A stretch of 64,000 nucleotides of DNA from Candidatus Cloacimonadales bacterium (GTDB lineage: Bacteria > Cloacimonadota > Cloacimonadia > Cloacimonadales > JAFGVF01), in assembly GCA_963663475.2 (NCBI GenBank), contig CAXXJV010000001.1:672001-736000 (forward strand). The letters run 5' to 3'. A program made the translations under genes and the position numbers. Within the stretch, counting starts at the first letter, position 1. Every line of letters starts with the position of its first letter. The notes under the pieces are model-generated. The model had not been told where the DNA came from and ran no database searches. It was given only the letters and a program-made list of their open reading frames with translations. Below are positions 16,667-34,744 of the stretch, piece after piece.

Positions 16667-16930
16667 TTTTCGCCTTTCGGCTCAAAGATGCTTGCTTGGC
16701 AAGAATGAAGAATTAAAAATGAAAAGTGAAAAATAAGAAGAAAGAAGATTCTTTACACGAATTAACTCGAATTAAGACGAATTTCACGAATAAGAGGGTT
16801 TTCGCCTTTCGGCTCAAAGATGCTTGCTTGGCAAGAATGAAGAATTAAAAATGAAAAGTGAAAAATAAGAAGAAAGAAGATTCTTTACACGAATTAACTC
16901 GAATTAAGACGAATTTCACGAATAAGAGGA
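16667..16930 (+). repeat. 132-bp tandem duplication of repeat modules (two copies plus the start of a third)
   Basis: TTTTCGCCTTTCGGCTCAAAGA starts at 16667, 16799 and 16931, with essentially identical sequence between. Confidence 0.92.
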
Positions 16931-17461: not shown

Positions 17462-17884
17462 ATGGAAAGAAAAAAGAATATGACTCATAAGATTCAAAAG
17501 ACCTATAGTGAAAGTTTTAAAATTAAAGTTGTTGACGAAATAGAGAAGGGAGATTTAACTCAAGCTGGAGCTTGTAGACTTTACAATATTTCAGATAGCA
17601 ATGTGAGTAGATGGGTTGCCAATTATGGTATGAATGAACGAGTGGGAAAAAAGGTGGTAGTTATGACCGATAGAGAAATACGTGAATCTGACCTTTTAAG
17701 GAAAGAGAATAAGCAGTTAAAACGAGCATTAGAAGATAGTCAGTTCTCCAACGAAGTTCTAGAGAAATATATTCATTATATTGCAGAACAAAATGGTATT
17801 GATTTAAAAAAAAAGATCGATTCAGGTTTATCAGAAGATACTCAAAAACTCTTGATTTCAAGGTTGCTAAAAGGTCAGGAATAA
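17462..17884 (+). CDS. IS3 transposase OrfA (HTH)
   Basis: YSESFKIKVV..ACRLYNI..VSRWV HTH and a leucine-zipper-like LRKENKQLK. Confidence 0.88.
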   Translation: MERKKNMTHKIQKTYSESFKIKVVDEIEKGDLTQAGACRLYNISDSNVSRWVANYGMNERVGKKVVVMTDREIRESDLLRKENKQLKRALEDSQFSNEVLEKYIHYIAEQNGIDLKKKIDSGLSEDTQKLLISRLLKGQE

Positions 17885-17889
17885 GCCAA

Positions 17890-18675
17890 ATGTGTAGTTT
17901 ATTACAAGTATCTAAATCAGGTTACTATAAATATCTTCAAACTGTCTCCCAGAGTTCTACAAATGACTCCCTATGTCTTTCCAGAGTTAAACAATATAGA
18001 AAAATTCAGCCTTATGCAGGCACTTATAAATGTTGGAAAATGCTACATAATGATGGTTTTAAAATTGGGAGAAATCATCTTAACTGCCTGCTTAAAGAAC
18101 ATAATATGTTGATCAGGAAGAAGAAGAAATATTGCAAAACTTCAATATCAGATGGTAGTAAGGTATATCCTAATTTACTTAAAGATACCGAAGTAAAGAG
18201 GAAAAATCAAGTTTGGGTAACTGATATTACTTATATTTCTAAAGGCAAAGGGTTTTATTATTTGTTTTTGCTAAGTGATATGTATACTAGACAGATATTG
18301 GATTATGAAGTTTCTTCTAATATGTTGACTGATAATCATATAAGGATGTTAAAAAGACAGCTAAACCATGTTGATAATGCTAACGATCTTATTCATCATT
18401 CAGATCATGGTTCTCAATATACAAGTAATGAGACTATTAGCCTTCTGAAAAAGCATGGTATAAAGATTAGTATGACTGGTGATGGTAAATGCTATGATAA
18501 CCCTATTGCTGAAAGAATAAACTGCACAATGAAGCATGAATTTGGTTTAAATCGGACATTTAGCACTATAGAAAGTCTTAAAAAAGCTACTAAAGATGCA
18601 GTAATGATCTATAACTCTCAGAGACTTCACAAAAGTTTGGGGTATTTTACTCCAAATGATTTTGCAAATCATTAA
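17890..18675 (+). CDS. IS3 transposase OrfB (DDE), joined to OrfA by a -1 frameshift at the A9G site at 17806-17815
   Basis: WVTDITY, HHSDHGSQY and DNPIAERIN motifs. The -1 frame is open from the A-run to 17890. Confidence 0.92.
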   Translation: MCSLLQVSKSGYYKYLQTVSQSSTNDSLCLSRVKQYRKIQPYAGTYKCWKMLHNDGFKIGRNHLNCLLKEHNMLIRKKKKYCKTSISDGSKVYPNLLKDTEVKRKNQVWVTDITYISKGKGFYYLFLLSDMYTRQILDYEVSSNMLTDNHIRMLKRQLNHVDNANDLIHHSDHGSQYTSNETISLLKKHGIKISMTGDGKCYDNPIAERINCTMKHEFGLNRTFSTIESLKKATKDAVMIYNSQRLHKSLGYFTPNDFANH

Positions 18676-19204: not shown

Positions 19205-20461
19205 ATGAAAAGACAGGTTTTACTCATAATAATCTTGCTAGTTTCACTTATGGCAGGGGCAGAAGTTATAGACAGAATTATAGCTAAAGTAGGAAATGAC
19301 ATAATATTACAGTCTGATTTAGAAAAGCAAATAATGCAGATGCAAAACTCTGGTATGTTAGATGATACAATGACAGAGCAAGCCATTCTTGAACAGATGG
19401 TAGAATTCAAACTTGTAGTCCAAAAAGCTAAAGAATTAGATTATGTTGTAAATGAAGATCAAATTGCTGCCATGGCTCAAAGAAGGATAGAAGAAATTAG
19501 AAAAAACTTTGATTCCGAAACAGCCTTCCTAAATGAACTTAAAAAAAGTAATATGAATAGGTTTGACCTGCTTAATTATTTCAAAGATATGTTAAAAGAA
19601 CAATCTCTTAGAGAACAAGTTATTCGCTATGAAGTAGATTCCAAAATTCAAGTAAGTGATGAAGAAATTCAAGACTTCTATGATCAGCATATTGATGAAA
19701 TTCCCTTAAGACAAGCTTCCTACAAGTTAGGAATGATTCTTATGCAAATTAAAGCTAGTGATAAAACTAAAGAAAAAAGGTATGCAGAGTTAGAAGAAAT
19801 CCTTGAAAGAATTAGCAGAGGTGAATCTTTTGCAGAACTAGCAAAAAAATATAGTGACTGTGGTTCAGCTGCAGCTGGTGGAGATTTAGGTTACTTCGGA
19901 AGAGGGGAAATGGTTAAGAACTTTGAAAATACAGCCTTCTCCCTTAAACCAGGTCAGGTATCTGATATTATCGAAACTCAGTTTGGCTATCATATTATCA
20001 AACTTGAAGACATTAAAGAAAATCAAGTTAGGGCACGACATATCCTTAAAGACTTAACACCTACAAAGTTAGACTCTCTTGCCTACTACAAACTAATGCA
20101 AGAAATTGTGGAAAAATATCAACAAGGACAAGATTTTGCTTCATTGGCAAGACAGTATTCAGATGATCAAGCTTCAGCTCTCCAAGATGGTGTGATTGGT
20201 ATCTTCCCACATGGACAATACCCTCCTCTCTATGAAGAATATTTTAAAGACTTACAACTTGGTCAAATATCTGATATAATTCAAATTCAAGACATGTATT
20301 ATATTTTTGCTAATCTTGAAGATGTACCTGAAGGAGTCTATGAATTAGATGAGATAAAAGATAGGGTAAAAGAAATGGCCTTTATGGAAAAGAAACAAGC
20401 ATTTTACCAAGATTGGATAAAGCAAATTAAAAACGATATCTATGTTGAAATCACCTATTAA
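19205..20461 (+). CDS. surA: SurA-like parvulin peptidyl-prolyl isomerase chaperone
   Basis: Signal peptide, DRIIAKVGNDIIL, and two rotamase domains (FAELAKKYSD..GGDLGYF..ETQFGYHII). Confidence 0.88.
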   Translation: MKRQVLLIIILLVSLMAGAEVIDRIIAKVGNDIILQSDLEKQIMQMQNSGMLDDTMTEQAILEQMVEFKLVVQKAKELDYVVNEDQIAAMAQRRIEEIRKNFDSETAFLNELKKSNMNRFDLLNYFKDMLKEQSLREQVIRYEVDSKIQVSDEEIQDFYDQHIDEIPLRQASYKLGMILMQIKASDKTKEKRYAELEEILERISRGESFAELAKKYSDCGSAAAGGDLGYFGRGEMVKNFENTAFSLKPGQVSDIIETQFGYHIIKLEDIKENQVRARHILKDLTPTKLDSLAYYKLMQEIVEKYQQGQDFASLARQYSDDQASALQDGVIGIFPHGQYPPLYEEYFKDLQLGQISDIIQIQDMYYIFANLEDVPEGVYELDEIKDRVKEMAFMEKKQAFYQDWIKQIKNDIYVEITY

Positions 20462-21005
20462 AAATATCTATGAGCTTATAGCGACCTTTTTTATGGTAGG
20501 AAAGGCACCTAAAGGACCAGGCACCTTTGGAAGCTTGGCTGCTGCCCTTATCTACTACTATCTTCCTAGAATAGCTGCAATTGTGAATAGCTTCTTTAAT
20601 CCCCTTTCTTTGAGAGGGGTGGCATCGGAGATGACGGGGAGAGTCCTTCCACAAATCTACGATTCCCCCTTCTGGCTCCTCTTCCTCATAGCCTTCTTCT
20701 TCCTTGGAGTATATGTCTCCACTAAAGCAGAAGAGACTATGGGACACGACAATGGCCACATAGTTATTGATGAAGTGGTAGGTTATTGGTTTGCCCTTTA
20801 TCTCTTTCAACCTTCCCTCTATTATGTTGTTTTCGGCTTCTTATTATTCAGATTATTTGATATAGCAAAACCATATCCTATTAATAAATTACAGAATTTA
20901 CCTAAAGGTTGGGGAGTTATGGTGGATGATTTGATGGCTGGGGTTTATACTGCTCTGATTTTAGGACTTATAGATTTAATTTGGTTTATTGTTAAACCTG
21001 TGTAG
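20442..21005 (+). CDS. pgpA: Phosphatidylglycerophosphatase A, containing an in-frame repeat insertion
   Basis: PGTFGSL, IVIDEVVG, FRLFDIAKPYPI and GVMVDDLMAG motifs. Confidence 0.92.
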   Translation: MLKSPIKNIYELIATFFMVGKAPKGPGTFGSLAAALIYYYLPRIAAIVNSFFNPLSLRGVASEMTGRVLPQIYDSPFWLLFLIAFFFLGVYVSTKAEETMGHDNGHIVIDEVVGYWFALYLFQPSLYYVVFGFLLFRLFDIAKPYPINKLQNLPKGWGVMVDDLMAGVYTALILGLIDLIWFIVKPV

Positions 21006-21585
21006 GACTAACTGGGAAGAAGGGAATGCTTGTTTCGCAAGAATGAAGAATTAAAAATGAAAAGTGAAAAATAAAGAAGATTCTTTACACAAATTAACAC
21101 GAATTAAGACGAATTTCACGAATTTTTTAAGAACCTTAACACAGAGTTCACAGAGTTTTAAGAAACAAAATTCTTTACACAAATTAACACGAATTAAGAC
21201 GAATTTCACGAATAAGAAGAGCTCCTTAACACAGAGTTCATAGAGGTAAAGAGGAGTTTCACAGAGTTTAGGAAAAAATTAGCTTGCTAAAAGCCTGCCT
21301 GTCCTTGGGTCGCGGGATTCCAGCCCGCGGTTACGCAGATTACAGGTGGTTACGGGATTGGGTCGCGGGATACCAGCCCGCGGTTACGCAGATAATAAAG
21401 CGGTTACGGGAGTAACTGGGAAGGCGGGCATCCTTGCCCGCAGTAGGCAGTATTATACTGCCTACAAACGAAGTCTATCCACGGATTGACGAAAGAAAAT
21501 TATCCTTAACACAGAGTTACACAGAGTTAAAGAGGAGTTGCACAGAGTTTAGGAAAAAATTAGCTTGCTAAAAGCCTGCCTGTCC

Positions 21586-21853
21586 TTGGGTCGCGGGATT
21601 CCAGCCCGCGTTTACGCAGATTACAAGCGGTTACGGTATTGGGTCGCGGGATTCCAGCCCGCGTTTACGCAGATTACAAGTGGCTACGGGAATGGGTCGC
21701 GGGATTCCAGCCCGCGTTTACGTAGATAATAAAGCGGTTACGGGATTGGGTCGCGGGATTCCAGCCCGCGTTTACGCAGATAATAAAGTGGTTACGGGAT
21801 TGGGTCGCGGGATTCCAGCCCGCGTTTACGCAGATAATAAAGTGGTTACGGGA
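21586..21853 (+). repeat. Five tandem 53-54-bp units, each with a CGCGGG/CCCGCG hairpin
   Basis: Units start at 21586, 21639, 21692, 21746 and 21800. There are no unique spacers. Confidence 0.92.
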
Positions 21854-23395
21854 GTAACTGGGAAGGCGGGCATCCTTGCCCGCAGTAGGCAGTAAAGAAC
21901 TGCCTACAAAAGAAGTCTATCCACGGATTGACGAAAGAAAATTATCCTTAACACAGAGTTACACAGAGGTAAAGAGGAGTTGCACAGAGTTTAATTACAT
22001 AAATCTACCTAGCTAAAAGCCTGCCCGTATTTGGGTCGCGGGATTCCAGCCCGCGGTTACGCAGATAATAAAGCGGTTACGGTATTGGGTCGCGGGATTC
22101 CAGCCCGCGGTTACGCAGGTGTCATGTTGTTACCAGGCCTATGGAGTGGAAGCATCCTTGCTTGCACCCACATTATTCTGAAACCAGGGATAGTCTCAGA
22201 CCATAGTTTTTTTTAACCCGCGTTTACAAAGGTGGCATGCTGTTACCAGGCTTGGCATCTACTAGCAGATGGTGGACAGCTTTTCCGTCACATTATTTTT
22301 TGTTAGCTTTTTCCTATTATCCCATATTTGGGATTATCTTAACTTATCTTGCCACTAATTCTATAATTTATCTTAAATCAACAGAAAAATCACTTATTCA
22401 TCCATGTACCTTCCTTTACAGTCTTTCGATGAAACACGGACTTTCATCGAAAGACCGTAAAGGAAGGGGAAAGGATGACAAGAGAAAACAACCAGCCATC
22501 AAAGAAATGAAAATTTAGAAAAACTAAAAAAAAAATAAGTCTTCGCAAGAGCTAGAAGACCTTCAATAATAAAAAATCTGAAATATGAATAACATATAAA
22601 ACCAATACAGGGTAAGATCTATTAGATAATATTATAAGTGTGGTGGCAAGTATCTTACATAAGGAATATACATCCCTTGCTAACAGTTCTGATAGGCATT
22701 AAACCCAAATAATGCAATAGAGCTCTTCTCTAAAGCTCTATTGCACAATCTGTGTTAAAAAAAAACTGGCTGCAATGGGCAAGATGACCAACTTGTCTAA
22801 AAAGAAAGAAACTATCTGCTAGATTTTTCTATTTTTTATCTAGGAAAGTGTACCATTTTAAACTGCCATCTACATTATGGACTGAGACCATCCCTGGTCT
22901 CAGAATAGTGTGTGTGCAAGCAAAGATGCTTCCACTCAATAAGACCTGTAACAGCATGACACCTGTGTAACCGCGGGCTAGAATCCCGCGACCCAAGGAC
23001 AGACAGGCTTTTAGCAAGATAGATTTTTCCTAAATTCTGTGGTAACCTCTGTGAACTCTGTGTTTAGGATAATTTTGCTTTCGTCAATCCGTGGATAGAC
23101 TTCTTTTGTAGGCAGTATTATACTGCCTACTGCGGGGCAGGGATGCCCGCGTTCCCAGTTAGTCCCGCACCCCAGTTAGAATCTTCTTTCTCTCCATCTC
23201 TCTATCACTCCATCACCCCGTCTTTGAGCCGAAAGGCGAAAATCCTCTTATTCGTGAAATTCGTCTTAATTCGTATTAATTTGTGTAAAGCATCTTGTCC
23301 TATCACTTCTCCTTGTTGAATCTGCTATCGCCCTTCCAGGGCTTATATTTCTATTATTCAATATGGAGTGTCTTACGAACACTCCCTTTTAGCTG

Positions 23396-23420
23396 TTATC
23401 CCTTCGGGATAATTTTTTTT
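23396..23420 (+). terminator. Putative intrinsic terminator
   Basis: TTATCCC-TTC-GGGATAA followed by T8. Confidence 0.45.
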
Positions 23421-23877
23421 CTAACTAATGAATGATTATAAAACATATAAATATAATCACTCACTTTTCATTTTTAATTCTTCATTCTTCATTCTTCATT
23501 CTTGCGAAGCAAGCATCTTTGAGCCGAAAGGAGAAAAATCTTACGTCTTCATCTTCTCTGTGTTCTCTGTGGCTCTGTGGTTAGTAGGTATTTCTTCTTT
23601 TTATCGGTGTTTTCAGTGTTATCGGTGGCTAAATATTTCCTCTCTCTTCTTACTTATTCGTGTTTTATTTGTGTTCATTAGTGGCTAAACTCTTCTTCTT
23701 TCTTGTATTCTTTGTGCCTTAGTGGTGAAATAAAATTCGTGAAATTCCTTCTAATTCGCGTTAATTCGTGTAAAGAATTTCCAAAAATATCTTAAATTAA
23801 GAAAAAAACACTTGACGTCTCACTCAAGCCCCTTTTAATAGCCACTGTATTAAATAAGACATTTGAGGATTATTGAA

Positions 23878-24945
23878 ATGAATATAAATGGTAATATATT
23901 GGTAACAGGTGGTGCTGGTTTCATTGGTGCAAATTTCATTCACTATCTATTTGAACAAACAGATTTTACAGGCTTAGTAATCAACGTTGATAAATTAACT
24001 TATGCTGGAAATCTAGAAAATCTCTCTGAAATTTCTCATAAATACGATGATAGATATTGCTTTCATCAGATAGATATTTGCAACTATGCTGCAATGGATG
24101 TAATTTTTACCAAGTATAAGCCTCAAATAGTAGTCCATTTTGCTGCTGAATCCCATGTAGATAGGTCAATTCACGGACCAAAAGAATTCATTGAAACAAA
24201 TATTATCGGAACTTTTAACTTGCTTGAACTTGCAAAAAAACACTGGCAAGATAGACAAGATGTTCTCTTTCATCATATTTCAACTGATGAAGTTTATGGT
24301 TCTTTAGGAGAAACAGGTTATTTCTACGAAGATACACCTTATGATCCTCGTTCTCCTTACTCATCTTCCAAAGCATCTTCAGACCACCTTGTTTCAGCCT
24401 ATTTCCATACCTATAAATTACCAGTAACTATCTCCAACTGCTCTAATAACTACGGTCCATACCAATTCCCAGAAAAACTTATCCCTCTAATGATTTCTAA
24501 TATGTTAGAAGATAAGAATCTCCCTGTTTATGGTGATGGTAAAAATATCCGAGATTGGCTTTATGTAGAAGACCATTGCTCAGGTATCTGGAAAATAATC
24601 CAAAATGGTAGAAGAGGTCAAACCTACAATATCGGCGGAGAAAATGAATGGGAAAATATCAAACTTCTTCACGTACTTTGCGAAGTTGTCGCTAAAAAAT
24701 CAGGGAAAGATCTAAATAAAATATTAGATTTGATTACTTATGTTAAAGATAGAGCAGGACACGATAGACGCTATGCTATCAACTGCGATAAAATAAAGAA
24801 TGAACTCGGCTGGAAGCAATCTGTAGATTTCTCACAAGGCTTGGAAAAAACTGTTGAATGGTACTTAAATAATACAGAATGGATTGAGAATATTAAGACT
24901 GGGGAGTACCAGAAGTGGATTGATAAAAATTATTCGAATGAATAA
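23878..24945 (+). CDS. rfbB: dTDP-glucose 4,6-dehydratase
   Basis: GGAGFIG, DKLTYAGN, AAESHVDRSI, STDEVYG and YSSSK motifs. Confidence 0.96.
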   Translation: MNINGNILVTGGAGFIGANFIHYLFEQTDFTGLVINVDKLTYAGNLENLSEISHKYDDRYCFHQIDICNYAAMDVIFTKYKPQIVVHFAAESHVDRSIHGPKEFIETNIIGTFNLLELAKKHWQDRQDVLFHHISTDEVYGSLGETGYFYEDTPYDPRSPYSSSKASSDHLVSAYFHTYKLPVTISNCSNNYGPYQFPEKLIPLMISNMLEDKNLPVYGDGKNIRDWLYVEDHCSGIWKIIQNGRRGQTYNIGGENEWENIKLLHVLCEVVAKKSGKDLNKILDLITYVKDRAGHDRRYAINCDKIKNELGWKQSVDFSQGLEKTVEWYLNNTEWIENIKTGEYQKWIDKNYSNE

Positions 24946-24975
24946 TTTTTATCATTTAATAATTTAAGAGTTTTT

Positions 24976-25401
24976 ACCACAGAGCCACAGAGAACACAGA
25001 GAAGATAATTAAGAAAAAATATAATAACCACAGAGACACAGAGAACACAGAGAAGAAATTAAGAAAAAGAATAAACTCTATGCCCTCTGTGTCTCAGTGG
25101 TGAATAAAAGGTGCTTCAGATTATAGCAATCTGTAAGTCATAGGGCGAAGCTTGCTTTAAAATTGGATAACCATGGAATGCAAAAAAAAAATAGTTATAC
25201 CACAACCACAGAAAGTACTGAGAAGAAAATAAATAAGATTGACCTTTGTGCCCTCTGTGTCTCAGTGGTAAAAAAGAAATGTAATAACCACAGAGCCACT
25301 GAGAACACTGAGAAGAAAAATAATAAAGAATTACCTTTGTGTCTCAGTGGTGAAAAAAATTAGCTGTTAATTCTTCTCTGTGCTCTCTGTGTCTCTGTGG
25401 T
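24976..25401. repeat. 9-bp-periodic inverted arms ACCACAGAGnCACAGAGAACACnGAGAAG / CTCTGTGCCCTCTGTGTCTCAGTGGT
   Basis: Left arms at 24976, 25027, ~25198 and 25287. Right arms end at 25101, 25269, 25351 and 25401. Confidence 0.92.
25110..25155 (+). repeat. 46-bp conserved hairpin site, copy 1
   Basis: GGTGCTTCAGATT-atagc-AATCTGTAAGTCATAGGGCGAAGCTTGC. Confidence 0.9.
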
Positions 25402-25412
25402 GAAATAATAAA

Positions 25413-25808
25413 ATGGTAGGTTATATTATGGGTGATGGTTTGTACTCAGATATTACTAAGCAGATTATTGGTGCTGCAATCGAAGTTCATAGAAATTTAG
25501 GACCTGGATTGTTAGAATCAGTCTATGAGGTTTGTTTAATATCAGAATTAAAAAGTAGAAGTTTAGATGTGCAAAGCCAAGTCAATATTCCAATAATTTA
25601 TAAAAACATAAGACTTGATGACCACCTTCGGATAGATATTTTAGTAAATGATTGTGTCATAATAGAATTAAAATCTGTAAATAATTTGCTACCTATACAT
25701 GAAGCTCAAATGTTATCTTATATGAAATTAGCTAAAAAGAAAGTTGGTTTATTAATTAACTTTAATGCTAATATACTTGTTAATGGTGTAAAAAGGTTAA
25801 TACTATAA
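25413..25808 (+). CDS. GxxExxY protein (PD-(D/E)XK-like), copy 1; may start at 25428
   Basis: LGPGLLESVYE, RIDILV..IIELKSV, HEAQ..SY and GLLINF motifs. Confidence 0.92.
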   Translation: MVGYIMGDGLYSDITKQIIGAAIEVHRNLGPGLLESVYEVCLISELKSRSLDVQSQVNIPIIYKNIRLDDHLRIDILVNDCVIIELKSVNNLLPIHEAQMLSYMKLAKKKVGLLINFNANILVNGVKRLIL

Positions 25809-25823
25809 AACAAAAAAGCTATA

Positions 25824-26234
25824 ACCACAGAGTCGCAGAGAACACCGAGAAGATAAATAATAACAAGAACTAAAAACTCTGTGCCCTCTGTGTCTCAGTG
25901 GTGAGAATAAAGGTGCTTCAGATTATAACTATCTGTAAGTCATAGGGCGAAGCTTGCTAAAAATTTTATAACTATAGAATACTAAGAAAGAAATTTAACC
26001 ACAGAGCCACAGAGAACACTGAGAAGAAAGAATAAAAAAAATAAACTCTGTGCCCTCTGTGTCTCAGTGGTAAAAAAAAAGTATAGAAAGTAAAAGCTAT
26101 GTACCCACATGGGTGAGTATAAGAAGTGGATAGAAACTACTATAAATAAATGGTTTAACCACAGAGTCACAGAGAACACGGAGAAGAAAATAATAACAAA
26201 GAATACTTCTCTGTGTCCTCTGTGTCTCAGTGGT
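25824..26234. repeat. Three gene-less hairpins of the 9-mer inverted arms
   Basis: 25824-25902, 25998-26071 and 26158-26234. Confidence 0.92.
25912..25957 (+). repeat. 46-bp conserved hairpin site, copy 2
   Basis: Identical to copy 1 except in and next to the loop. Confidence 0.9.
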
Positions 26235-26260
26235 GAATAAAAATAATAAAAGGAGAAAGT

Positions 26261-27289
26261 ATGATTAATAAAGTTGAACTTAAAAACTTTGGTCCAATCA
26301 AACATTTGAATTGGCACAATATAAGCAATATAAACCTTATTATCGGAAAAAACTCTACCGGTAAAACCTTTCTTCTTAAATCTCTTTACACAGCTATGAA
26401 GACTATTGAAGAATATAAGCGTGGTGATAATCCAAAATCATTATCTGATATTCTTATAGATAAATTAATCTGGACTTTTCAAACAGATATTATAGGTGAT
26501 TTGGTAAATAAAGAGGAGAATTCTCTCAATTTTAGCATAGATTTTAATTATAAGCACTGGAACTATTCCTTTGGAAAAGAAACTTCTAAACAAATTAAAT
26601 CAATTGAATATCATATTGATAAAAGAGAAGATGATAATTCAATCTTTCTTCCTGCTAAAGAAATAACATCTATAGATAAAATCATTTTTGACAGTAGGGA
26701 TAATAAACAGCTTTTCGGCTTCGATAACACTTATTACGATCTAGCCAAAGCAATCAGACTAAATACACAAAAAGGTAGGAACTTCCCTGAATTTGCTAAT
26801 TGTAGAAAAAACCTAAAAGAAATTATTGATGGTAAAATTGAATTTGATACTACCACTGAAAAATGGTATTATAAAAAAGGAAAACAAAAATTTTCAATAG
26901 GTATGACTGCTGAAGGAATTAAAAAGATAGCAATTATTGATATTTTATTAGGAAATAGATATTTAACTAAAGATTCCATAATTTTTATTGATGAGCCAGA
27001 ATCTGCTCTTCACCCAAAAGCAATTTCTCAATTCCTAGAATTATTATCAGAACTAAGTGAATCAGGAATTCAGATTTTTATGGCTACCCATTCTTATTAT
27101 GTTATTAAAAGACTTTACTTAATTTCCCAGAAGAAAGAAAAATCAATTTCTGGGATTTCTTTTGATGATAGCCATGAAAACAATTTCATAGAGTTTGATT
27201 TAATAGATGGTATCCCTGAAAATTCAATCATCGAAGAATCTATAAACCTATACAAGGAAGAGGTTGATCTAGGCTGGGATAATGAATAA
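26261..27289 (+). CDS. ABC-type ATPase (AAA_21/AAA_15-like), no membrane partner
   Basis: Walker A GKNSTGKT, Walker B IFIDEPE, LHP and H-loop ATHS. Confidence 0.88.
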   Translation: MINKVELKNFGPIKHLNWHNISNINLIIGKNSTGKTFLLKSLYTAMKTIEEYKRGDNPKSLSDILIDKLIWTFQTDIIGDLVNKEENSLNFSIDFNYKHWNYSFGKETSKQIKSIEYHIDKREDDNSIFLPAKEITSIDKIIFDSRDNKQLFGFDNTYYDLAKAIRLNTQKGRNFPEFANCRKNLKEIIDGKIEFDTTTEKWYYKKGKQKFSIGMTAEGIKKIAIIDILLGNRYLTKDSIIFIDEPESALHPKAISQFLELLSELSESGIQIFMATHSYYVIKRLYLISQKKEKSISGISFDDSHENNFIEFDLIDGIPENSIIEESINLYKEEVDLGWDNE

Positions 27290-27791
27290 AATAATAACTG
27301 AATCAGGTATGAAATTCGGTCCTTTTGAAGATAAATATCTTTATCATATCGAACAAAGCGATATGGTAAAATCATTACAGATAAAAATAGTAGAGTTTTT
27401 AGTTTATCATAAAAAAACTTTGACATTTATTGAAGCAAAAAGCTCTTCACCAAATCCAGAGAATAAAAGATTAGATAATGATGAAAAATTTGATGTATAT
27501 ATTGATAATATTATCAGCAAATTTGTTAATTCTGTAAGTCTTTACATTTCAGTATATCTTAAAAGACTCACTGATATAATCGGGACGGAGTTAGAGAAAA
27601 TCAATCTTTCTAAAGCAAATATTCGTTTATTGTTAGTTATTAAAAATCACGAAACAAAATGGTTACCTCCAATTAGTGATGCAATAAAAGTCAAACTAAA
27701 TGCTGTATGTAAGATTTATAGTATTAATCCTAGTAATATAATAATTATGAATGAGCAAATGGCTATCAGTAAAGGATTGATAGCTGAATAA
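27282..27791 (+). CDS. Hypothetical protein, possible PD-(D/E)XK-type nuclease, overlapping the ATPase stop
   Basis: IVEFLV...LTFIEAKSS resembles (P)D...ExK; 8-bp overlap with the ATPase gene. Confidence 0.5.
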   Translation: MNKIITESGMKFGPFEDKYLYHIEQSDMVKSLQIKIVEFLVYHKKTLTFIEAKSSSPNPENKRLDNDEKFDVYIDNIISKFVNSVSLYISVYLKRLTDIIGTELEKINLSKANIRLLLVIKNHETKWLPPISDAIKVKLNAVCKIYSINPSNIIIMNEQMAISKGLIAE

Positions 27792-27978
27792 GAAAAATAA
27801 GTGAAAAATTGTGGTATTGCTTCGCAATGGAGTTTAAAGAATAGAACACAGATAACTCAGATTGAACAGATATTAACAGATAAGAGAGATTAGGTTTAAT
27901 AAAGAATATAGAATGCATAAATAAAAGTTTTTTAATAATTAATTTTGTGTTCTATGTACCTTTTTGTTGAATAGAAAC

Positions 27979-28024
27979 GGTGCTTCAGATTTCAGCAATC
28001 TGTAAGTCATAGGGCGAAGCTTGC
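27979..28024 (+). repeat. 46-bp conserved hairpin site, copy 3
   Basis: Loop tcagc; the rest is identical to copy 1. Confidence 0.9.
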
Positions 28025-28034
28025 AAAAAAAATA

Positions 28035-28108
28035 ACCACAGAGCCACAGAGAACACTGAGAAGAAAAGAATAAAGAATTTAACTCTGTGCTCTCTGTGTC
28101 TCAGTGGT
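28035..28108. repeat. 9-mer inverted-arm hairpin upstream of GxxExxY copy 2
   Basis: ACCACAGAGCCACAGAGAACACTGAG ... CTCTGTGCTCTCTGTGTCTCAGTGGT. Confidence 0.9.
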
Positions 28109-28119
28109 GAAATAATAAA

Positions 28120-28515
28120 ATGGTAGGTTATATAATGAGTGATGGTTTGTACTCAGATATTACTAAGCAGATTATTGGTGCTGCAATTGAAGTCCATAGA
28201 AATTTAGGACCCGGTTTATTAGAATCAGTCTATGAGGTTTGTTTAATATCAGAATTAAAAAGTAGAAGTTTAGATGTGCAAAGCCAAGTTAATATTCCAA
28301 TAATTTATAAAAACATAAGACTTGATGACCACCTTCGGATAGATATTTTAGTAAATGATTGTGTAATTATAGAATTAAAGTCGGTAAATAGTATATTACC
28401 TATCCATGAAGCCCAAGTATTATCTTATATGAAATTAGCTAAAAAGAAAGTTGGTTTATTAATTAATTTTAATGCTAATATACTAGTCAATGGTGTTAAA
28501 AGGTTGATACTATAA
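28120..28515 (+). CDS. GxxExxY protein, copy 2 (127/131 aa identical to copy 1)
   Basis: Direct comparison of the two translations. Confidence 0.92.
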   Translation: MVGYIMSDGLYSDITKQIIGAAIEVHRNLGPGLLESVYEVCLISELKSRSLDVQSQVNIPIIYKNIRLDDHLRIDILVNDCVIIELKSVNSILPIHEAQVLSYMKLAKKKVGLLINFNANILVNGVKRLIL

Positions 28516-28532
28516 AACAGAAATACTATAAA

Positions 28533-28604
28533 TACAGAGTCGCAGAGAACACTGAGAAGAAAAGAATAAAGAATTTAACTCTGTGCCCTCTGTATCTCTG
28601 TGGT
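28533..28604. repeat. 9-mer inverted-arm hairpin downstream of GxxExxY copy 2
   Basis: ACAGAGTCGCAGAGAACACTGAG ... CTCTGTGCCCTCTGTATCTCTGTGGT. Confidence 0.88.
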
Positions 28605-28870
28605 AAATAAATTAAAATAATTAAATATCTTATTTTTTTTGAAGTGAGTAAAGTACTTCTTACTAAAACTCTGTAGCAATTGAAATATTTGCTAAAAAAA
28701 AAGAAAAATAAACTTGACGAATCTAATAATAGCAAGATTTATAGAGACTTGAGAGAATTAGGAAGGTTGGATTTCGTCTAAGATATACTAAGCGAAATTG
28801 TAATTCTTTTAATTCCATACGATTGTGAGTTTCTGGGAAACTGGAAAAATTATATTTATAGTGTGGAAAT

Positions 28871-28917
28871 AGTGCTTCAGATTGCAGGGAATCTGTAAGT
28901 CATAGAGCGAAGCTTGC
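28871..28917 (+). repeat. Conserved hairpin site, copy 4 (47 bp)
   Basis: AGTGCTTCAGATT-gcaggg-AATCTGTAAGTCATAGAGCGAAGCTTGC. Confidence 0.88.
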
Positions 28918-29012
28918 AATAAAAATAATTAATATTAGTTCATTCTAACAAATCATGTATCGCTCAGTAAGAACTATAATATTATAAAATAGAGTTGCTA
29001 TTATAACTAAAG

Positions 29013-29921
29013 ATGAGGAACAAGATGAAAAATTGGATTTTAGGTAAAATACAAAATATTGTAAGAATTATGATTTATAAATTTGGTTTCTTTATAATAA
29101 GTGACAAATTATATTTAAAGATAAGTTATTGGGCTAAAATGGGGAAAAAAATAAATTTTGATAATCCAGTATCTTATACTGAAAAAATCCAATGGCTAAA
29201 ATTAAATTATTATAAACCCGAATTTACAAAAATGGCAGATAAAATTGAAGCAAAAAACATTGTGTCTAATATTATTGGTGATGATTATGTGATTCCTTCG
29301 TTAGGAGTGTGGAATAATTTTGAAGAAATTGACTTTAATTTATTACCAAAACAGTTTGTTCTCAAAACAAATCATGATTCTGGAGGAGTTGTAGTTTGTA
29401 AAGATAAATCAAAGTTCAATATAGAAAATGCAAAAAGATTGCTATCCACTAGTTTAAAAAAAAAATATTATTATTGTGGAAGAGAACTCCCGTATAAAGG
29501 AATTAAACCTAAAATATTAGCAGAAAAATATTTAGTTGATGAGAGTAAACAAGAGTTAAAAGATTATAAATTTTTTTGTTTTAATGGAGAGCCAAAGCTT
29601 TTATTTGTAGCACAGAATAGACACATAGAAACTAAATTTGACTTTTTTGATATGCAATTTCATAAACTAAATATAAAAAATTATTATAAAAACTCTTCAA
29701 CTTTACAATCTAAACCAAAGAATTTTGAACTAATGATTGAATTAGCTAAGAAACTTTCCAAAGGGTTGCCACATATTAGAATTGATTTTTATAACATTTC
29801 AGGAAAAATATATTTTGGAGAATACACTTTTCATCATTTTGGGGGATATAAAAAATTTGAACCCGAAGAATGGGATTATGAAATAGGTAGCTGGTTAAAA
29901 TTACCTGAAAAAAATAGATGA
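29013..29921 (+). CDS. TupA-like ATP-grasp amide ligase (polysaccharide-associated)
   Basis: EKIQWLKL, LKTNHDSGG, DYKFFCFNG, RIDFY and YFGEYTF motifs. Confidence 0.9.
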   Translation: MRNKMKNWILGKIQNIVRIMIYKFGFFIISDKLYLKISYWAKMGKKINFDNPVSYTEKIQWLKLNYYKPEFTKMADKIEAKNIVSNIIGDDYVIPSLGVWNNFEEIDFNLLPKQFVLKTNHDSGGVVVCKDKSKFNIENAKRLLSTSLKKKYYYCGRELPYKGIKPKILAEKYLVDESKQELKDYKFFCFNGEPKLLFVAQNRHIETKFDFFDMQFHKLNIKNYYKNSSTLQSKPKNFELMIELAKKLSKGLPHIRIDFYNISGKIYFGEYTFHHFGGYKKFEPEEWDYEIGSWLKLPEKNR

Positions 29922-30440
29922 ATTAATAACAAATAAAATTCTTATTATACTAATAATATCATATCTATGTAGTAAATTAAAGTATGAATATTTTAGATGT
30001 AATATATTAACTAAACTGTAAGATTTATAATAGTAATGAGTATACTTTTTATATGAGAAAAAATATACACAAACTTTATAAATTAACAAGTATATTTAGT
30101 GTTAGTATAAAAGAAGTAATTGAAATAATAAATTTACTTAGATTGTACAGGTAGTAATTTTATATTAAGTTAATATAATCAAAAGACTAATCAGATAAAT
30201 AAAGCAAAATAATATTCATACTGATAGGTCTATATATAAAAGCGAAAGTAAATATAAAGGAAAAGTAACAAGTGTTATTAACCATTTTGATTAGTGTATT
30301 TCAGAATGAATATATCTGCATATACAAAGAAATTGTTAATTCTGTAATTTTAATTGGATTACTTCTAATAATAATATTAAGTAACAATTCGATTTTTAAT
30401 TTTTCACTTTATCAAAGTTACTTTAAAATAAAGGAGCAAT

Positions 30441-31862
30441 ATGAAAACTGTCGTTATTCAAGGATTAGGATTTGTCGGCTTAGCCATGGCCACCGTCGTC
30501 GCTAACGCTGTTGATGCAAAAGGAAACCCATTATACAATGTTATAGGTGTAGATCTTCCTATGAATCAAGATAGGATTGATCAAATTAATTTAGGAAATT
30601 TACCTTTCAAAAATGAAGACGAAACTTTCCCTGTTCAGTTGAAAAAAGCAGTTTTAGAATATAAAAACTTATTAGCTTCTACAGATGAAGATTGGTATAA
30701 AAAAGCAGATATCGTAGTTGTTGATATTCAACTTGACATCAAGAAGAGAGTTATTGGTAATGCTAAAGATTGTTACTTAGAGAAAGATGCTTTTATTAAA
30801 GCTATTCATACTTTAGGAAGGCATATCAAACAAGAGTGTTTAGTATTAGTTGAGACAACTGTAGCTCCTGGTTTTAGCAGACACGTTGTTAAACCTGCTT
30901 TAGATAAAGAATTTATGGAACGCGGTATAGATGTTGTGGCTAATCCTCCTCGCATTGCTCACTCTTATGAAAGAGTGATGCCTGGTAAAGAGTATTTAGC
31001 TTCTATTAGATCATATCCTCGCACCTTCTCAGGATTTGATAAGATAAGTGCTGACATGGCACGTGAATTCTTAGAAAATGTCCTTGAAGTGGATAAATTC
31101 CCTCTTAGAGAAGAGAAATCAACTGAAACTTCAGAGCTTGCCAAAGTTATGGAAAACTCTTACAGAGCAGTTAATATTGCTTTGGTTAACGAATGGACTT
31201 TGCTTGCTGAAAAGATGGAAGTGAATATTTTCGATGTTATCGAAGGTATCAAAAAGAGAAAGACCCATAATAACATGCTTTATCCAGGACTTGGTGTAGG
31301 TGGTTACTGTTTAACCAAAGATACTCTTCTTGCTTACTGGTCTGGAATTAATTTCTATGATGAAAATCTTGATTTACCTATGACTATTAAAGGTATTAAT
31401 ATTAATGATACTATGCCTTGGCATACTTATGACTTAATTAAAGACAAATTCTATGAAGATAAATTCAAAACAATCCTACTCGGTGTTTCCTACCGTGAAG
31501 ATGTGGGTGATACTCGCTATGCTCCAGCTGAAAAACTCTACACTAAATTAGATAATGATGGTTTAGATGTCCATGTCCACGACCCTTATGTAGATGAATG
31601 GCCAGAACTTCCTGAAGCTAAATTTATAGACCAAATTACAGACCTTAAAGAATATGATTGCGTGGTTCTTGGGGTAAAACATAACTGCTATCTAAACCTT
31701 TCAGCTGATGAACTTATCCAAGCTACAAAACCTCAAACCCTTATTGTGGATGCAAATAATATTCTTGATGATGAGAAGATTTTAGCTCTGCTAAAGAGTG
31801 GAAGAGATGTGATTGGTGTGGGTAAAGGGCACATAACGAGAATGAAAAGAGAGCTTGTTTAG
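30441..31862 (+). CDS. UDP-N-acetylhexosamine dehydrogenase-family nucleotide-sugar dehydrogenase
   Basis: GLGFVG, ETTVAPG, ENSYRAVNIA and PGLGVGGYCL motifs. Confidence 0.88.
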   Translation: MKTVVIQGLGFVGLAMATVVANAVDAKGNPLYNVIGVDLPMNQDRIDQINLGNLPFKNEDETFPVQLKKAVLEYKNLLASTDEDWYKKADIVVVDIQLDIKKRVIGNAKDCYLEKDAFIKAIHTLGRHIKQECLVLVETTVAPGFSRHVVKPALDKEFMERGIDVVANPPRIAHSYERVMPGKEYLASIRSYPRTFSGFDKISADMAREFLENVLEVDKFPLREEKSTETSELAKVMENSYRAVNIALVNEWTLLAEKMEVNIFDVIEGIKKRKTHNNMLYPGLGVGGYCLTKDTLLAYWSGINFYDENLDLPMTIKGININDTMPWHTYDLIKDKFYEDKFKTILLGVSYREDVGDTRYAPAEKLYTKLDNDGLDVHVHDPYVDEWPELPEAKFIDQITDLKEYDCVVLGVKHNCYLNLSADELIQATKPQTLIVDANNILDDEKILALLKSGRDVIGVGKGHITRMKRELV

Positions 31863-32298
31863 CCACAGAATACACAGAATACACTGAAAATATGATTTAT
31901 GAAAAAGAGTTGTCTAAAAAAGTTATAGGTTGTGTTTTAAATGTTTATCATACACTTTGGTTATGGATTTTTAGAAAAAATCTATGAAAATCACTTATGA
32001 TAGAACTGGAAAGGCAATATATTAAAGCTAAATGCCAACTACCAATCAAAGTGTATTATCAGAATATAATAGTAGGTGATTACTTCGCAGATATTGTAGT
32101 AGGAAATAAGATAATTTTAGAATTAAAACATGTTAATGAGCTAAACCTAGCACACGAAGCACATTTGTTAAATTACCTTAAAGCTACAGGTATAAAAGTT
32201 GGCTATTGGATAAACTTTGGAAAACCAAATGGTTTAGATTTTAAAAGATTAGTCTTTTAAAAATATTCTTTTCAGTGTTTTCTGTGTATTCACTGGCT
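31861..32298 (+). mobile_element. Putative minimal element: 30-bp inverted repeats enclosing GxxExxY copy 3
   Basis: AGCCACAGAATACACAGAATACACTGAAAA (31861-31890) matches the reverse complement of 32269-32298 at 27/30 positions. Confidence 0.6.
31892..32260 (+). pseudogene. Frameshifted GxxExxY gene, copy 3 (divergent subfamily)
   Basis: Starts MIYEKELSKKVIGCVLNVYHTL. GYGFLEKIYE reads in the +1 frame, then the original frame resumes (ADIVV..ILELK..HEAHLLNYLKATG). The original frame has a TGA between the two indels. Confidence 0.85.
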
Positions 32299-32539
32299 AA
32301 TTAAAATAGCAAGCTCATTTTTCTAAAATAGCATTTAGCTCATTAATAGAAGTTTTTGTCAGGTAATATATTTTTGAGTTAAGTTTTATTAAACGAGATA
32401 AATATTTGGACATTAAAAAATTTGCTGAAGAAATATCAAATAAAATTAACTCTTTGTGAAATTATCATTTAAACAATTAAACAAAACCACAGTTCAACTC
32501 TAATTGTTTTCAGTAGCTATACACAAAAAAGGAATATTT

Positions 32540-33412
32540 ATGAAGGGAATTATATTAGCAGGAGGAGCAGGTTCAAGGCTTCATCCTTTAACATTTAGTA
32601 TTTCAAAGCAATTATTGCCAATATATAATAAACCAATGATTTATTATCCTATGTCAATTTTAATGTTGGCAGGGATTAGAGAGATTTTGATAATATCGAC
32701 ACCTCATGATTTACCAAATTTTCAGAAATTATTTGGTGATGGGAGTCAATTAGGATTAAAATTAACTTATACCGAACAGGCTCAACCTAATGGATTGGCA
32801 GAAGCTTTTATTATTGGAGAAGAATTTATTGATAATGATAATGTTAGCTTAATTCTTGGGGATAATATTTTTTATGGCCAGAATCTTCCAACCCTATTGA
32901 CAAAAGTTTCAGGTTTAACAGATGGTGCAGAGATATTTGGTTATTATGTTCATGATCCAGAAAGATATGGCGTGGCTGAGGTAGATGAAAAATGGAATGT
33001 GTTAACAATAGAAGAAAAACCAGAAAAGCCGAAATCAAATTATGCTGTTGTTGGTTTATATTTCTATGATAATCAAGTAGTAGAAATAGCTAAGAATATA
33101 AAGCCTTCAAAAAGAGGTGAATTAGAGATAACTTCAGTCAATGAAGAGTACCTAAAACGAGGTCAGCTTAAACTTCATCCTTTGGGTAGAGGAACAACTT
33201 GGCTTGATACCGGAACGCACGAATCTTTGCTTGAAGCAGGAAAATTCGTAGAGATTATTGAAAAGAGACAAGGATTGAAAATAGCTTGTTTAGAAGAGAT
33301 TGCTTACCGTAAAGGTTATATAGATCATACACAACTAATTAAATGCAGTGAAGCATTTGGTAAGAGTGAGTATGGATCATATTTGAAAGAGCTAGTTAAG
33401 TTAAAATCATAG
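32540..33412 (+). CDS. rfbA: Glucose-1-phosphate thymidylyltransferase
   Basis: [36 protein letters not shown] and WLDTGT motifs. Confidence 0.96.
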
Positions 33413-33432
33413 CATAAAAGAGGTTTATTTAC

Positions 33433-33843
33433 ATGAAAGATAGTCATATAATTAATTTTAATGAGATTAAAGACACAAGAGGTAAGCTTGTATCTATCGA
33501 GAATTGTAAGAATATCCCATTTGAGATTAAAAGAGTATATTACTTATATGCTTTAAATATATCATTAAGTAGGGGGTATCATGCTCACAGAAAGTTAAAG
33601 CAAATTCTAATATGCATAAATGGAAATTGTGAAATTTTACTAGATGATGGATATATTAAAAAAACATATAGATTAGAAACAAGGAACAAGGGGATTTTGA
33701 TTGAACACATGGTTTGGCGAGAGATGTATAATTTCAGTAAAGATTGTGTTATTCTTGTTTTAGCATCTGATTATTATAATGAAGATGATTATATAAGAAA
33801 TTATGAACAGTTTATAGATTATTTAAAAAGAGATAATCACTAG
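33433..33843 (+). CDS. fdtA: dTDP-4-keto-6-deoxyglucose 3,4-ketoisomerase (FdtA/QdtA cupin)
   Basis: DTRGKL, IPFEIKRVYY, RGYHAH and YIRNY motifs. Confidence 0.88.
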   Translation: MKDSHIINFNEIKDTRGKLVSIENCKNIPFEIKRVYYLYALNISLSRGYHAHRKLKQILICINGNCEILLDDGYIKKTYRLETRNKGILIEHMVWREMYNFSKDCVILVLASDYYNEDDYIRNYEQFIDYLKRDNH

Positions 33844-33853
33844 TGGAGCAATA

Positions 33854-34744
33854 ATGAAAAATAATTTGTATAGAAGCTTGATGTTCGTTCCAGGACATAA
33901 CGAAAAACTAATGTTAAGTGCATCAACTAGCAATGCTGATATATTGCTGTTAGATTTAGAGGATTCTGTTAGGCCTAATTCTAATAAAAAGGTTGCTCGA
34001 GATACAATTGAGAAGTTTATTGTTGCAGGAAAATTTGAACAATTTAAGGTTTTTCCTCGAGTTAATGACCGAGAGAGTGGTTACTTACTAAAAGATGTTC
34101 ATCAATTAGCAATAGATGGGATTGATGGTTTTATGTATCCTAAAGCACATACTGGGGAGGATATATATTTTTTTGATAAACTTCTTGAGACAATAGAATA
34201 TGAAAAGAACTTTCCTATAGGAAAGTTCAAGATAATACCTTTAATAGAGACTTCAGCAGCTGTATTAAATGCACAAGAAATTTGTAAAGCTTCAAAAAGA
34301 GTTGTGGCAATAGCATTTGGTTGTGAAGATTTTATAACAGATTTACAGGGAATTCACGACAATGTGGGATTGAGTATATTAAATCCAAGAGCCTTAATCG
34401 CTTTAGCTGCTCGGGCTAATAATGTAATTCCTGTTGATACAGTTCATATTAATGTACATGATTTAGAAGATTTAGAAAAGAATTTAATTTTAGCAAAGAA
34501 GTTGGGTTTTGAAGGCATGCTTGTATTACATCCAAAAGAAATAGAATTAGTTCATAAGTATTATTCTCCATCAAAAGAAGACTATGATGATGCAATTGAA
34601 ATGTTAAGATTATATAAAGATGCAGAACTTAATAACCAAGGGGTAGCTGTTAAAAATAACAAATTCATTGGTCCTCCGATGGTTGAAACTGCTAAGAGAA
34701 TCAAACAAAAATATGAAGGAATTCATGGAAAAAACAATGAGTAA
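33854..34744 (+). CDS. CitE/malyl-CoA lyase-family (HpcH/HpaI) enzyme
   Basis: RSLMFVPG, LDLEDSV, LIETS, AFGCEDF and GFEG..LHP motifs. Confidence 0.88.
   Translation: MKNNLYRSLMFVPGHNEKLMLSASTSNADILLLDLEDSVRPNSNKKVARDTIEKFIVAGKFEQFKVFPRVNDRESGYLLKDVHQLAIDGIDGFMYPKAHTGEDIYFFDKLLETIEYEKNFPIGKFKIIPLIETSAAVLNAQEICKASKRVVAIAFGCEDFITDLQGIHDNVGLSILNPRALIALAARANNVIPVDTVHINVHDLEDLEKNLILAKKLGFEGMLVLHPKEIELVHKYYSPSKEDYDDAIEMLRLYKDAELNNQGVAVKNNKFIGPPMVETAKRIKQKYEGIHGKNNE

Follow-up and report, generated by a model that had tools for sequence, protein, structure and literature searches.

The published architecture closest to the elements described here is that of the intervening sequences (IVSs) of 23S rRNA, which carry an S23p or four-helix-bundle open reading frame (ORF) and are known from Coxiella, Leptospira and Salmonella. 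As described for Coxiella, the IVS is a selfish element of 428 nt closed by a terminal stem of 28 bp; its loop contains an S23p ORF, and three tandem heptamer repeats lie next to a stretch of AGAAGA. It is excised by RNase III, and an older idea cited in the same account holds that its ORF might serve mobility (PMC4990558). The nearest functional analogue is provided by repetitive extragenic palindromic (REP) sequences and REPINs together with their REP-associated tyrosine transposases (RAYTs), as portrayed in PMC3116915. Here we analyse a stretch of 64,000 nucleotides (the window) from a Candidatus Cloacimonadales bacterium (GenBank assembly GCA_963663475.2, contig CAXXJV010000001.1, positions 672,001 to 736,000 of the forward strand), and in it a cassette in which a gene for a GxxExxY protein, a small protein of nuclease fold, is associated with inverted arms made of short repeated words. 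Enrichment of the arms beside such genes, covariation of arm and protein, and filled and empty insertion sites support a mobile cassette with cognate arms, in which gene and arms are passed on together, vertically and horizontally, as a discrete unit that can be acquired or lost while retaining an arm variant of its own. Our favoured, still tentative interpretation, to which we give close to an even chance, is that these units form a very widespread family of insertable cassettes, each a PD-(D/E)XK gene in word-array arms, with a nuclease that would cut its cognate arms and a host that would do the joining.

The window lies within a large surface-polysaccharide locus, in which Pfam identifies glycosyltransferase, dTDP-glucose dehydratase-like, UDP-glucose-dehydrogenase-like, glucose-1-phosphate thymidylyltransferase-like and flippase genes, among others. 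The genome (3.3 Mb, two contigs, 33% G+C) is labelled G000 below, and six same-genus genomes that were also searched are labelled G001-G006. Three ORFs on the forward strand of the window match both Pfam PF13366 (PDDEXK_3) and NCBIfam TIGR04256 (GxxExxY protein). Copies 1 and 2 (25413-25808 and 28120-28515) are intact and match at E values of about 1e-44, with 152.6-152.7 bits (cut-off 35) and 149.1 bits (cut-off 22); comparison with a same-genus orthologue places the likely true start of copy 1 at its second ATG, at 25428. The two proteins are 97% identical, and copy 2 is evidently a local duplicate of copy 1. Copy 3 (31892-32260) matches in its C-terminal 87 residues only (31997-32260; E values of 1e-22 to 1e-23, 84.1 and 81 bits). 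About 12 of its codons, spanning the GxxExxY motif, are out of frame, with an in-frame TGA among them, and the conserved Q of the QxxxY motif is replaced by H; judged by these lesions, copy 3 is a pseudogene. At the same site, G004 has an intact orthologue that is 75% identical over 83 aligned residues. Genome-wide there are four GxxExxY matches, the fourth (copy 4; G000:C1:737594-737938) lying 1.6 kb beyond the end of the window. At least 561 GxxExxY/PDDEXK_3 relatives were found in species genomes. A 2012 survey, where it treats PDDEXK_3 (PF13366), gives its function as unknown, and GxxExxY is named in passing in a published passage. Literature searches with GxxExxY, PDDEXK_3, IVS, four-helix-bundle and arm-word terms returned no description of such cassettes.

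An earlier note on this DNA had assigned these genes a PD-(D/E)XK-like fold, and the structural model, its fold matches and the conservation of catalytic residues agree. Across 71 sequences conservation is complete at G32, D75, E85, K87, A98, Q99, Y103 and F117 and reaches at least 90% at E35 and Y38; we take these residues to be the E, D, ExK and QxxxY motifs of RecB-family nucleases. The AlphaFold2 model (predicted local distance difference test score 94.1) has as its best fold matches Cas4 SSO0001 (Z 7.8, root-mean-square deviation 4.2, 100 aligned), BpuSI (Z 7.6) and Hjc (Z 6.5), with further matches to restriction-enzyme nuclease domains and lambda exonuclease, and Foldseek returned 4ic1 (E 6.5e-4). 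All Z scores are below 8 and thus establish the general restriction-endonuclease-like fold alone; the protein is accordingly modelled as a RecB/Cas4-like PD-(D/E)XK protein of ~125 residues. PDDEXK_3 is the sole Pfam family matched, and the Pfam scan of the gene found no HUH Y1 (IS200/IS605-like) transposase domain. Searching PDB sequences with the profile of the family returned 0 matches, PHROGs gave 0 matching families, and PADLOC gave weak Cas4 profile matches alone for copy 1 (E 5e-4). PD-(D/E)XK enzymes can cut, and we know of none that joins DNA strands alone, which is why we prefer cutting followed by host repair to a RAYT-like transposase.

To ask how generally such genes are armed, we drew on species genomes, mostly metagenome-assembled genomes (MAGs), for 80 loci in which a gene is related to copy 1 (50-87% identity). 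They span Acidobacteriota, Verrucomicrobiota, Planctomycetota, Chlamydiota, Bacteroidota, Chloroflexota, Pseudomonadota and others, and include one Methanosarcinales MAG. ORFs were called mechanically, other ORFs of at least 100 amino acids in the same loci served as controls, and each ORF was scored by the best ungapped inverted repeat that could be formed from 245 bases at one end and 245 at the other, with thresholds of our own setting. A bracketing repeat with a score of at least 14 was found for 44 of 80 GxxExxY ORFs against 14 of 657 neighbouring control ORFs, several of which merely adjoin a cassette; at a score of at least 18 the counts were 32/80 and 5/657. With coordinates taken from the core of the hidden Markov model match, 52/80 genes reach 14 and 42/80 reach 18, and many of the remainder show degenerate arms of the same word. 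The gene lies inside the stem in 47 of 49 armed loci and outside it, like copies 1 and 2, in two Verrucomicrobia loci. Arms end in ACCAC / GTGGT. No target duplication was seen in 40 loci, where the bases outside both arms have no more than 4 letters in common, and no more than 2 in 39 of the loci. GxxExxY genes have the orientation of their upstream neighbour in 63 of 77 cases; among adjacent control pairs the figure is 349 of 523.

The arms are arrays of a 7-base unit, C-R-C-N-R-A-G, spaced at 8 (28 cases), 9 (53) or 10 (8) bases. The CACnGAnnn 9-mers described earlier therefore hold as a repeated word and fail as a strict 9-bp period, the spacing being 8-10 bases. Positions 1, 3 and 6 of the unit were fixed by the search expression and position 7 was free; it is G in 138 of 144 units. 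The two arms of a locus agree at 974 of 1,008 core positions and at 111 of 190 spacer positions (58%), the CACAGAG word persists in loci from 37% to 71% G+C, and CAC-type words occur in 46 of the 49 armed GxxExxY loci. Conserved words with drifting spacers are the pattern of a putative protein-binding word array, rather than of a helix kept only by pairing. The general form of the cassette is thus two inverted arms of about three 7-base words each (C-R-C-N-R-A-G/T), with free 1-3-base spacers and an ACCAC outer end.

Arm variant and protein clade go together across phyla. We built a maximum-likelihood tree of 87 proteins from 121 columns, which are few, by a short search with support from the Shimodaira-Hasegawa-like approximate likelihood-ratio test (SH-aLRT) only. 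Proteins with CACGAAT/CACTAAT arms form one branch (SH-aLRT 95). Three of its members come from Cloacimonadota, namely copy 4 and a pair of type-2 genes from the same genus; the fourth belongs to a Planctomycetota MAG, 2.3 kb from a type-1 gene with CACGGAG arms. Together with the CACCGAA-armed copy-3 orthologue they split from all GAG/AAG-armed proteins with a support of 98.7. On this tree the CACGAAG label requires 5 changes against a shuffled mean of 9.7 (0/500 shuffles as low), and all arm labels require 31 against 39.3 (0/200 as low). Phyla are interleaved in the same tree and arm variants track protein clades; gene and arms thus move between phyla as one unit.

Gain and loss of whole cassettes can be read from related loci. 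Two proteobacterial MAGs (L088 and L052) have reciprocal filled and empty sites in a common trp operon: in one, a cassette lies exactly between the trpE stop and the trpG start, where the other has a 10-base spacer; at the trpD/trpC junction the roles are reversed, with a cassette in the second MAG and a 5-base spacer in the first. Neither empty site shows a duplicated spacer. Within the genus, all of G001-G006 have a GxxExxY gene 3' of one and the same dehydrogenase-like gene. The G002 locus is a nested replacement: a different, separately armed inner cassette stands between an outer left-arm remnant and a 3' stub, the last ~12 codons of a copy-3-type gene, followed by the outer right arm. 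Cassettes thus occupy very short spacers between co-oriented genes, show no target duplication and can be replaced by another cassette.

At the type-1 site, G006 has one gene between two hairpins, compared with two genes plus 3.1 kb in G000, where there are seven more hairpins and a two-gene insert. A simpler form comes from two wastewater metagenome runs that contain a relative about 92% alike, with depths of 0-1.8 over copies 1 and 2 and of 37-92 over the genes on either side. In each run, one contig joins position 26041 to 28577 with 3 letters between (depths of 85 and 45.6, side 42), connecting the left arm and loop of the gene-less hairpin H6 (25998-26072) to the right arm of H9 (28530-28604), so that a single hairpin replaces hairpin-gene-hairpin. 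This form would fit the integration or loss of a circle of gene plus hairpin; recombination between two directly repeated hairpins would equally yield it. A second joint, from 31890 to 32271, which would represent an empty copy-3 form with a 14-letter loop, was found on one contig at a depth of 2.4 with a 21-letter side; it is too weak and was not used. Arm enrichment, protein-arm covariation and filled and empty sites, three of the four features by which the earlier note would judge its proposed mobile element, were found. Phages are no obvious vehicle, given that 2.9 million viral contigs of IMG/VR yielded only 2 relatives, at 38% identity.

Within the window, the claim that all three genes are tightly bracketed by inverted arms is upheld by the profile matches and by the arm pairs found, in which three CACNGAG-type words make up each arm. 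The pattern CACWGAGNNCACWGAG, which spans two units, occurs 21 times with at most one mismatch, against 0.02 expected from 100 shuffles. Copy 3 is enclosed by a 32-nt pair: its left arm (31859-31890, forward strand) starts at the stop codon of the UDP-glucose-dehydrogenase-like gene and its right arm (32269-32300) is on the reverse strand. Its units are CACAGAA/CACTGAA; the earlier note, too, had reported a different arm variant for this copy. Around copies 1 and 2 the inverted pairs measure 26-36 nt and are 81-97% complementary. The adjacent upstream arm of each is the CTCTGTG side and the adjacent downstream arm the CACAGAG side, which places both genes between two complete hairpins; copies 1, 2 and 4 all sit in this way beside the outer ACCAC ends of hairpins. 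The inverted-arm geometry described earlier therefore calls for correction: a gene within the stem formed by its arms is seen for copy 3 alone. The canonical form in the window is thus the decayed copy 3, and copies 1 and 2 are a locally duplicated gene between complete hairpins.

The hairpin field opens with a solitary left arm of three CACAGAG units (24976-25005, forward strand) directly 3' of a dTDP-glucose 4,6-dehydratase-like gene. It is followed by the gene-less hairpin H2 (25027-25106; arms 25027-25057 and 25076-25106; -31.2 kcal/mol, z -8.2), the degenerate gene-less hairpin H3 (25203-25274; right arm 25244-25274) and hairpin H4 (25287-25401), which has a left arm at 25287-25317, a partial right arm at ~25336-25353 and a full right arm at 25371-25401, and ends 11 nt 5' of the copy 1 ORF. 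Directly 3' of copy 1 is H5 (25824-25905; arms 25824-25853 and 25877-25905), whose loop is that of the hairpin 3' of the single copy in G006. Beyond H6 comes the gene-less H7 (26158-26236; -40.2 kcal/mol, z -7.95), 24 nt 5' of the first gene of a two-gene insert on the forward strand (26261-27791), an AAA_21 ATPase gene (26261-27289) and a gene for a 169-aa partner (27282-27791). H8 (28035-28109; arms 28035-28065 and 28083-28109) stands 10 nt 5' of copy 2, and H9, 3' of copy 2, has the same loop. In PADLOC the two-gene insert matches HEC-02, a candidate system of defence (HEC-02A at E 1e-145, HEC-02B at E 1e-53). G006 lacks the two genes at the same position, and they have a different context in the related metagenome strain; a candidate defence pair has landed in the same hairpin field.

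Six gene-less hairpins were folded, with energies of -23.5 to -40.2 kcal/mol and z scores of -4.2 to -8.2. A looser detector finds 241 arms in the genome, 47 of them in the 68 kb (2% of the genome) around the four genes, and 113 in the first Mb compared with 23-28 per Mb in shuffled sequence. All complete same-type arm pairs of the genome are confined to C1:696 kb-743 kb. Among the 2,351 ORFs of at least 100 residues in G000, only five have such arms within ~120 bp on both sides. Copies 1 and 2 account for two of these, out of three GxxExxY ORFs of that length, and the remaining three come from the 2,348 other ORFs.

Several further features of the field were recorded. H2 and H5-H8 (25027-28109) all have a mismatched first spacer and the same A.A mismatch in the outermost unit, where the left side reads CACAGAG and the right side is complementary to CACTGAG; this may reflect only shared descent, the hairpins being local duplicates. 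An intrinsic-terminator reading of the hairpins was rejected, right arms being followed by A runs and left arms preceded by T runs. An Rfam scan of 20000-34000 gave sub-threshold microRNA-type hairpin matches on the hairpins only. A conserved motif of ~46 nt (GTGCTTCAGATT ... CTGTAAGTCATAGGGCGAAGCTTGC) that contains two short nested stems is present at four places in the field (25111-25155, 25913-25957, 27980-28024 and 28872-28917) and at one other in the genome, near G000:C1:912106. Four same-genus genomes have it upstream of the dehydrogenase-like operon. Rfam gave no match to the motif, whose role may be that of a leader, or of an antitermination element, in polysaccharide operons.

We propose that the nuclease would recognise the word array of its own arms and that breaks would be made there, with host recombination or repair joining the ends by a homing-like or hairpin-to-hairpin route rather than by a self-sufficient transposase. 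In the operon transcript the paired arms would make a stem of ~28 bp open to cutting by RNase III, as in the 23S rRNA IVS, and a stem cut in this way would permit the cassette to stand inside operons and to be expressed by read-through. A more far-reaching version, which we hold to be possible though somewhat unlikely, credits GxxExxY nucleases with driving, each through its specific arms, a new class of mobile DNA that ranges over more than 12 bacterial phyla and at least one archaeon. Such a minimal RecB/Cas4-like nuclease would read three 7-base words within a hairpin or cruciform and cut at that place, and host repair would copy or move the whole armed cassette, with IVS and four-helix-bundle cassettes as sister branches that have arm-reading proteins of their own.

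Several observations weigh against a nuclease that drives its own cassette. First, arms occur without the gene. In a sample of 151 genomes of this one phylum, 106 have the gene (0-19 copies per genome) and 129 the arm pattern, and the two counts correlate (Spearman 0.53), figures that describe the sample rather than test it, as kin are non-independent. Of the 45 in which no GxxExxY gene was detected, 14 show 10-68 arm matches. Another 9 genomes have the gene and no match to the pattern used for these counts, which misses arm families that lack CCAC, so that they are no evidence for an absence of arms. One genus has 27-74 arm matches in each of its five genomes and the gene in a single one, the arms there being dispersed half-sites inside composite repeat arrays. 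Second, the architecture needs no nuclease cargo. Four-helix-bundle genes (TIGR02436), of the family that 23S rRNA IVSs encode, are absent from G000 and were found in 43 of 60 other genomes sampled from the order. Periodic inverted arms enclose them in 18 of 29 loci (score of at least 14, with no separate control set), and none of these 18 armed loci has CAC-type words, theirs being quite different.

Other points come from the cassettes themselves. Several lineages keep a cassette at one site although the flanks are only 70-78% identical, which looks like a retained gene and not a restless element. Unlinked copies within one genome are 38-58% identical and differ in arm variant, near-identical copies being tandem neighbours only, so that there is no sign of recent spread within a genome. 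In the window, copies 1 and 2 lie outside the stems. The gene-less hairpins, which the earlier note had taken for non-autonomous derivatives, do exist as reported; in the window they are not dispersed and are local duplicates beside the genes. Co-inheritance alone could give the covariation of protein and arm, which thereby does not prove recognition. At the RNA level, mismatches on the sense strand (48 G.U against 36 A.C, p 0.23) give no support for pairing. The earlier proposal of an element with its own arm variant thus survives as a discrete unit that is gained and lost; the part that cast the protein as the spreading enzyme runs into the gene-less arms, the four-helix-bundle cargo and the divergent copies.

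Much of this would follow if the periodic-arm hairpins were an independent repeat system, maintained by another factor or by host replication and recombination, with GxxExxY as its commonest passenger, for example a small nuclease of defence, addiction or repair that is retained for an effect of its own. Such a system would leave arms plentiful without the gene and would accept other cargo in the same architecture, as with the four-helix-bundle loci and the HEC-02 pair between hairpins. It also suits the long vertical persistence at fixed sites and the divergence of unlinked copies, and the interchange of hairpin-gene-hairpin and single hairpin would need direct-repeat recombination only. We nevertheless consider it doubtful. 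Arm families are specific to their cargo (CAC words in 46/49 armed GxxExxY loci against 0/18 for the four-helix bundle), the arm variant follows the protein clade across phyla, and the word is conserved over 37-71% G+C while the spacers drift, the last of which argues for a recognising protein that travels with the arms.

An improbable alternative is that the cassette is not, or no longer, self-mobile, and that its arms serve a nuclease retained by the host, either as an IVS-like stem for RNase III processing or stabilisation or as autoregulatory operators. The absence of promoter room between arm and start codon, the frequent co-orientation of the upstream neighbour (63/77), the insertions in 5-10-nt operon spacers, the strong stability of the stems and the long vertical persistence of the cassette are all consistent with it, as is the published RNase III excision of an IVS with heptamer repeats (PMC4990558). 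However, the filled and empty sites and the nested replacement are real gain events, the interleaving of phyla in the protein tree points to frequent transfer, and the spacers between the words are poorly complementary (58%), the excess of G.U over A.C mismatches on the sense strand not being significant.

Least of all do we expect a true RAYT/REPIN analogue, in which GxxExxY would act as the transposase that excises and inserts single-stranded hairpins and the gene-less hairpins would be its non-autonomous offspring: the inverted repeats that flank the gene do also occur without it, target duplication is lacking in 40 loci as for REP and IS200-type elements, and arm and gene counts correlate over the 151 genomes, but there is real counter-evidence in a protein whose sole domain is PDDEXK_3, with no HUH/Y1 or other strand-transfer chemistry, in complete gene-less hairpins of G000 that are clustered beside genes and not dispersed, in arms that persist in gene-less genomes and in unlinked copies that are divergent.

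Other repeats and cassette-like units were noted in the same genomes. Four-helix-bundle cassettes of related genomes are found at L002:326-661, L003:513-890, L005:446-826 and in L127-L156, with arm words such as GTGAAAAAT, GTCGAGAG, GGTGATAA and GAGAATT. Beyond the window, G000:C1:741164-742467 is a cassette-like unit with arms of the CACGAAT/CACAAAT type around a 147-aa ORF of unknown family. A segment of ~18.7 kb is apparently present in three copies (C1:392-19091, C1:1368259-1387032 and C2:307982-326823) that have identical arm contexts at equal relative spacing, with GGAGT-, GAGAATT- and CACGAAG-type periodic modules in strings. Two palindromic families are unrelated to the CAC-type arms: one has well over 100 copies genome-wide (for example G000:C1:51676-51754), with arms of ~36 nt ending in CTTTCGATGAAA and a 7-nt loop, and the second has a 115-nt spacer. 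The window also contains a large inverted repeat (21541-23041), with 79-nt arms 1,343 nt apart, filled with tandem GGGTCGCGGGATTCCAGCCCGCG-type units and nested between left-arm (21088-21976) and right-arm (23047-23627) strings of several families. An IS3-type transposase pair (17462-18675; HTH_Tnp_1 and rve) is inserted directly 3' of a left-arm string (16756-17224).

GxxExxY/PDDEXK_3 is one of the commonest small proteins without a known function, and the array of 7-base words provides a first concrete and testable candidate for its substrate. Were the protein to act on the arms, as the cassette interpretation has it, a new fold would be found to drive a REP-like or IVS-like element, and an explanation would be on offer for the long-unexplained origin of rRNA intervening sequences. 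Clean insertion into 5-10-base operon spacers without visible harm gives the cassettes interest as natural, compact, transcript-embedded gene carriers. They could also serve to mark recombination hot spots, such as the surface-polysaccharide/defence locus analysed here.

Among known systems, Cas4/RecB nucleases share the core fold and the conserved motif set with the GxxExxY protein, which differs in having no Fe-S cysteine cluster, about half the size and no CRISPR context. Free-standing homing endonuclease genes, PD-(D/E)XK ones among them, are likewise small nuclease genes that could spread by cutting of empty sites and repair copying, and the decay of copy 3 is of the kind that follows fixation; here, however, the target would be a repeat hairpin and not a conserved gene, and many cassettes stay intact at one site over long divergence. 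Derivation as a miniature inverted-repeat transposable element or from a DDE transposon was rejected, there being no target-site duplication at the terminal inverted repeats. Like integron cassettes with their attC sites, the units are promoter-less single genes with imperfect inverted repeats that fold as hairpins; they are arrayed, co-oriented and read through from outside, and the logic of circle plus site fits the relation of hairpin-gene-hairpin to single hairpin. They differ in having arms on both sides of the gene and insertions scattered in ordinary operons, and where attC has core sites the arms end in ACCAC instead. Among the 44 window ORFs scanned, Pfam identified an IS3-type transposase pair and no integrase, a result that covers the window only, no search for IntI having been made elsewhere in the genome.

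The resemblance to REP/REPIN-RAYT systems, as far as the published account portrays them, is that one small gene is flanked by inverted short repeats that also form gene-less extragenic hairpins, that specific repeat groups pair with specific gene copies, and that there is no target duplication. The protein, however, is of the PD-(D/E)XK type and RAYT a HUH tyrosine enzyme, the arms are three-word arrays where REP is one palindrome, and the cassettes cross phyla, in several divergent copies, with gene-less hairpins in G000 that are local and not dispersed. The parallel with a different fold that the earlier note drew is therefore a loose one, PD-(D/E)XK enzymes being cutters with no known joining activity.

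The IVSs of 23S rRNA come nearest. In the published descriptions they too place a small ORF in the loop of a terminal-inverted-repeat stem of ~28 bp, with no promoter of their own, inside a host transcript and with tandem heptamer repeats by an AGAAGA-like stretch at the 5' side; like the cassettes, they are regarded as selfish elements whose mobility is unknown. Unlike them, the cassettes lie between protein-coding genes (here of the polysaccharide locus, elsewhere of trp operons) and not in a 23S rRNA helix, their cargo is a nuclease-fold protein and their arm word is of the CACNGAG type, the RNase III step being known for the IVS only. Four-helix-bundle genes stand in cassettes of this kind at the same locus in relatives of G000.

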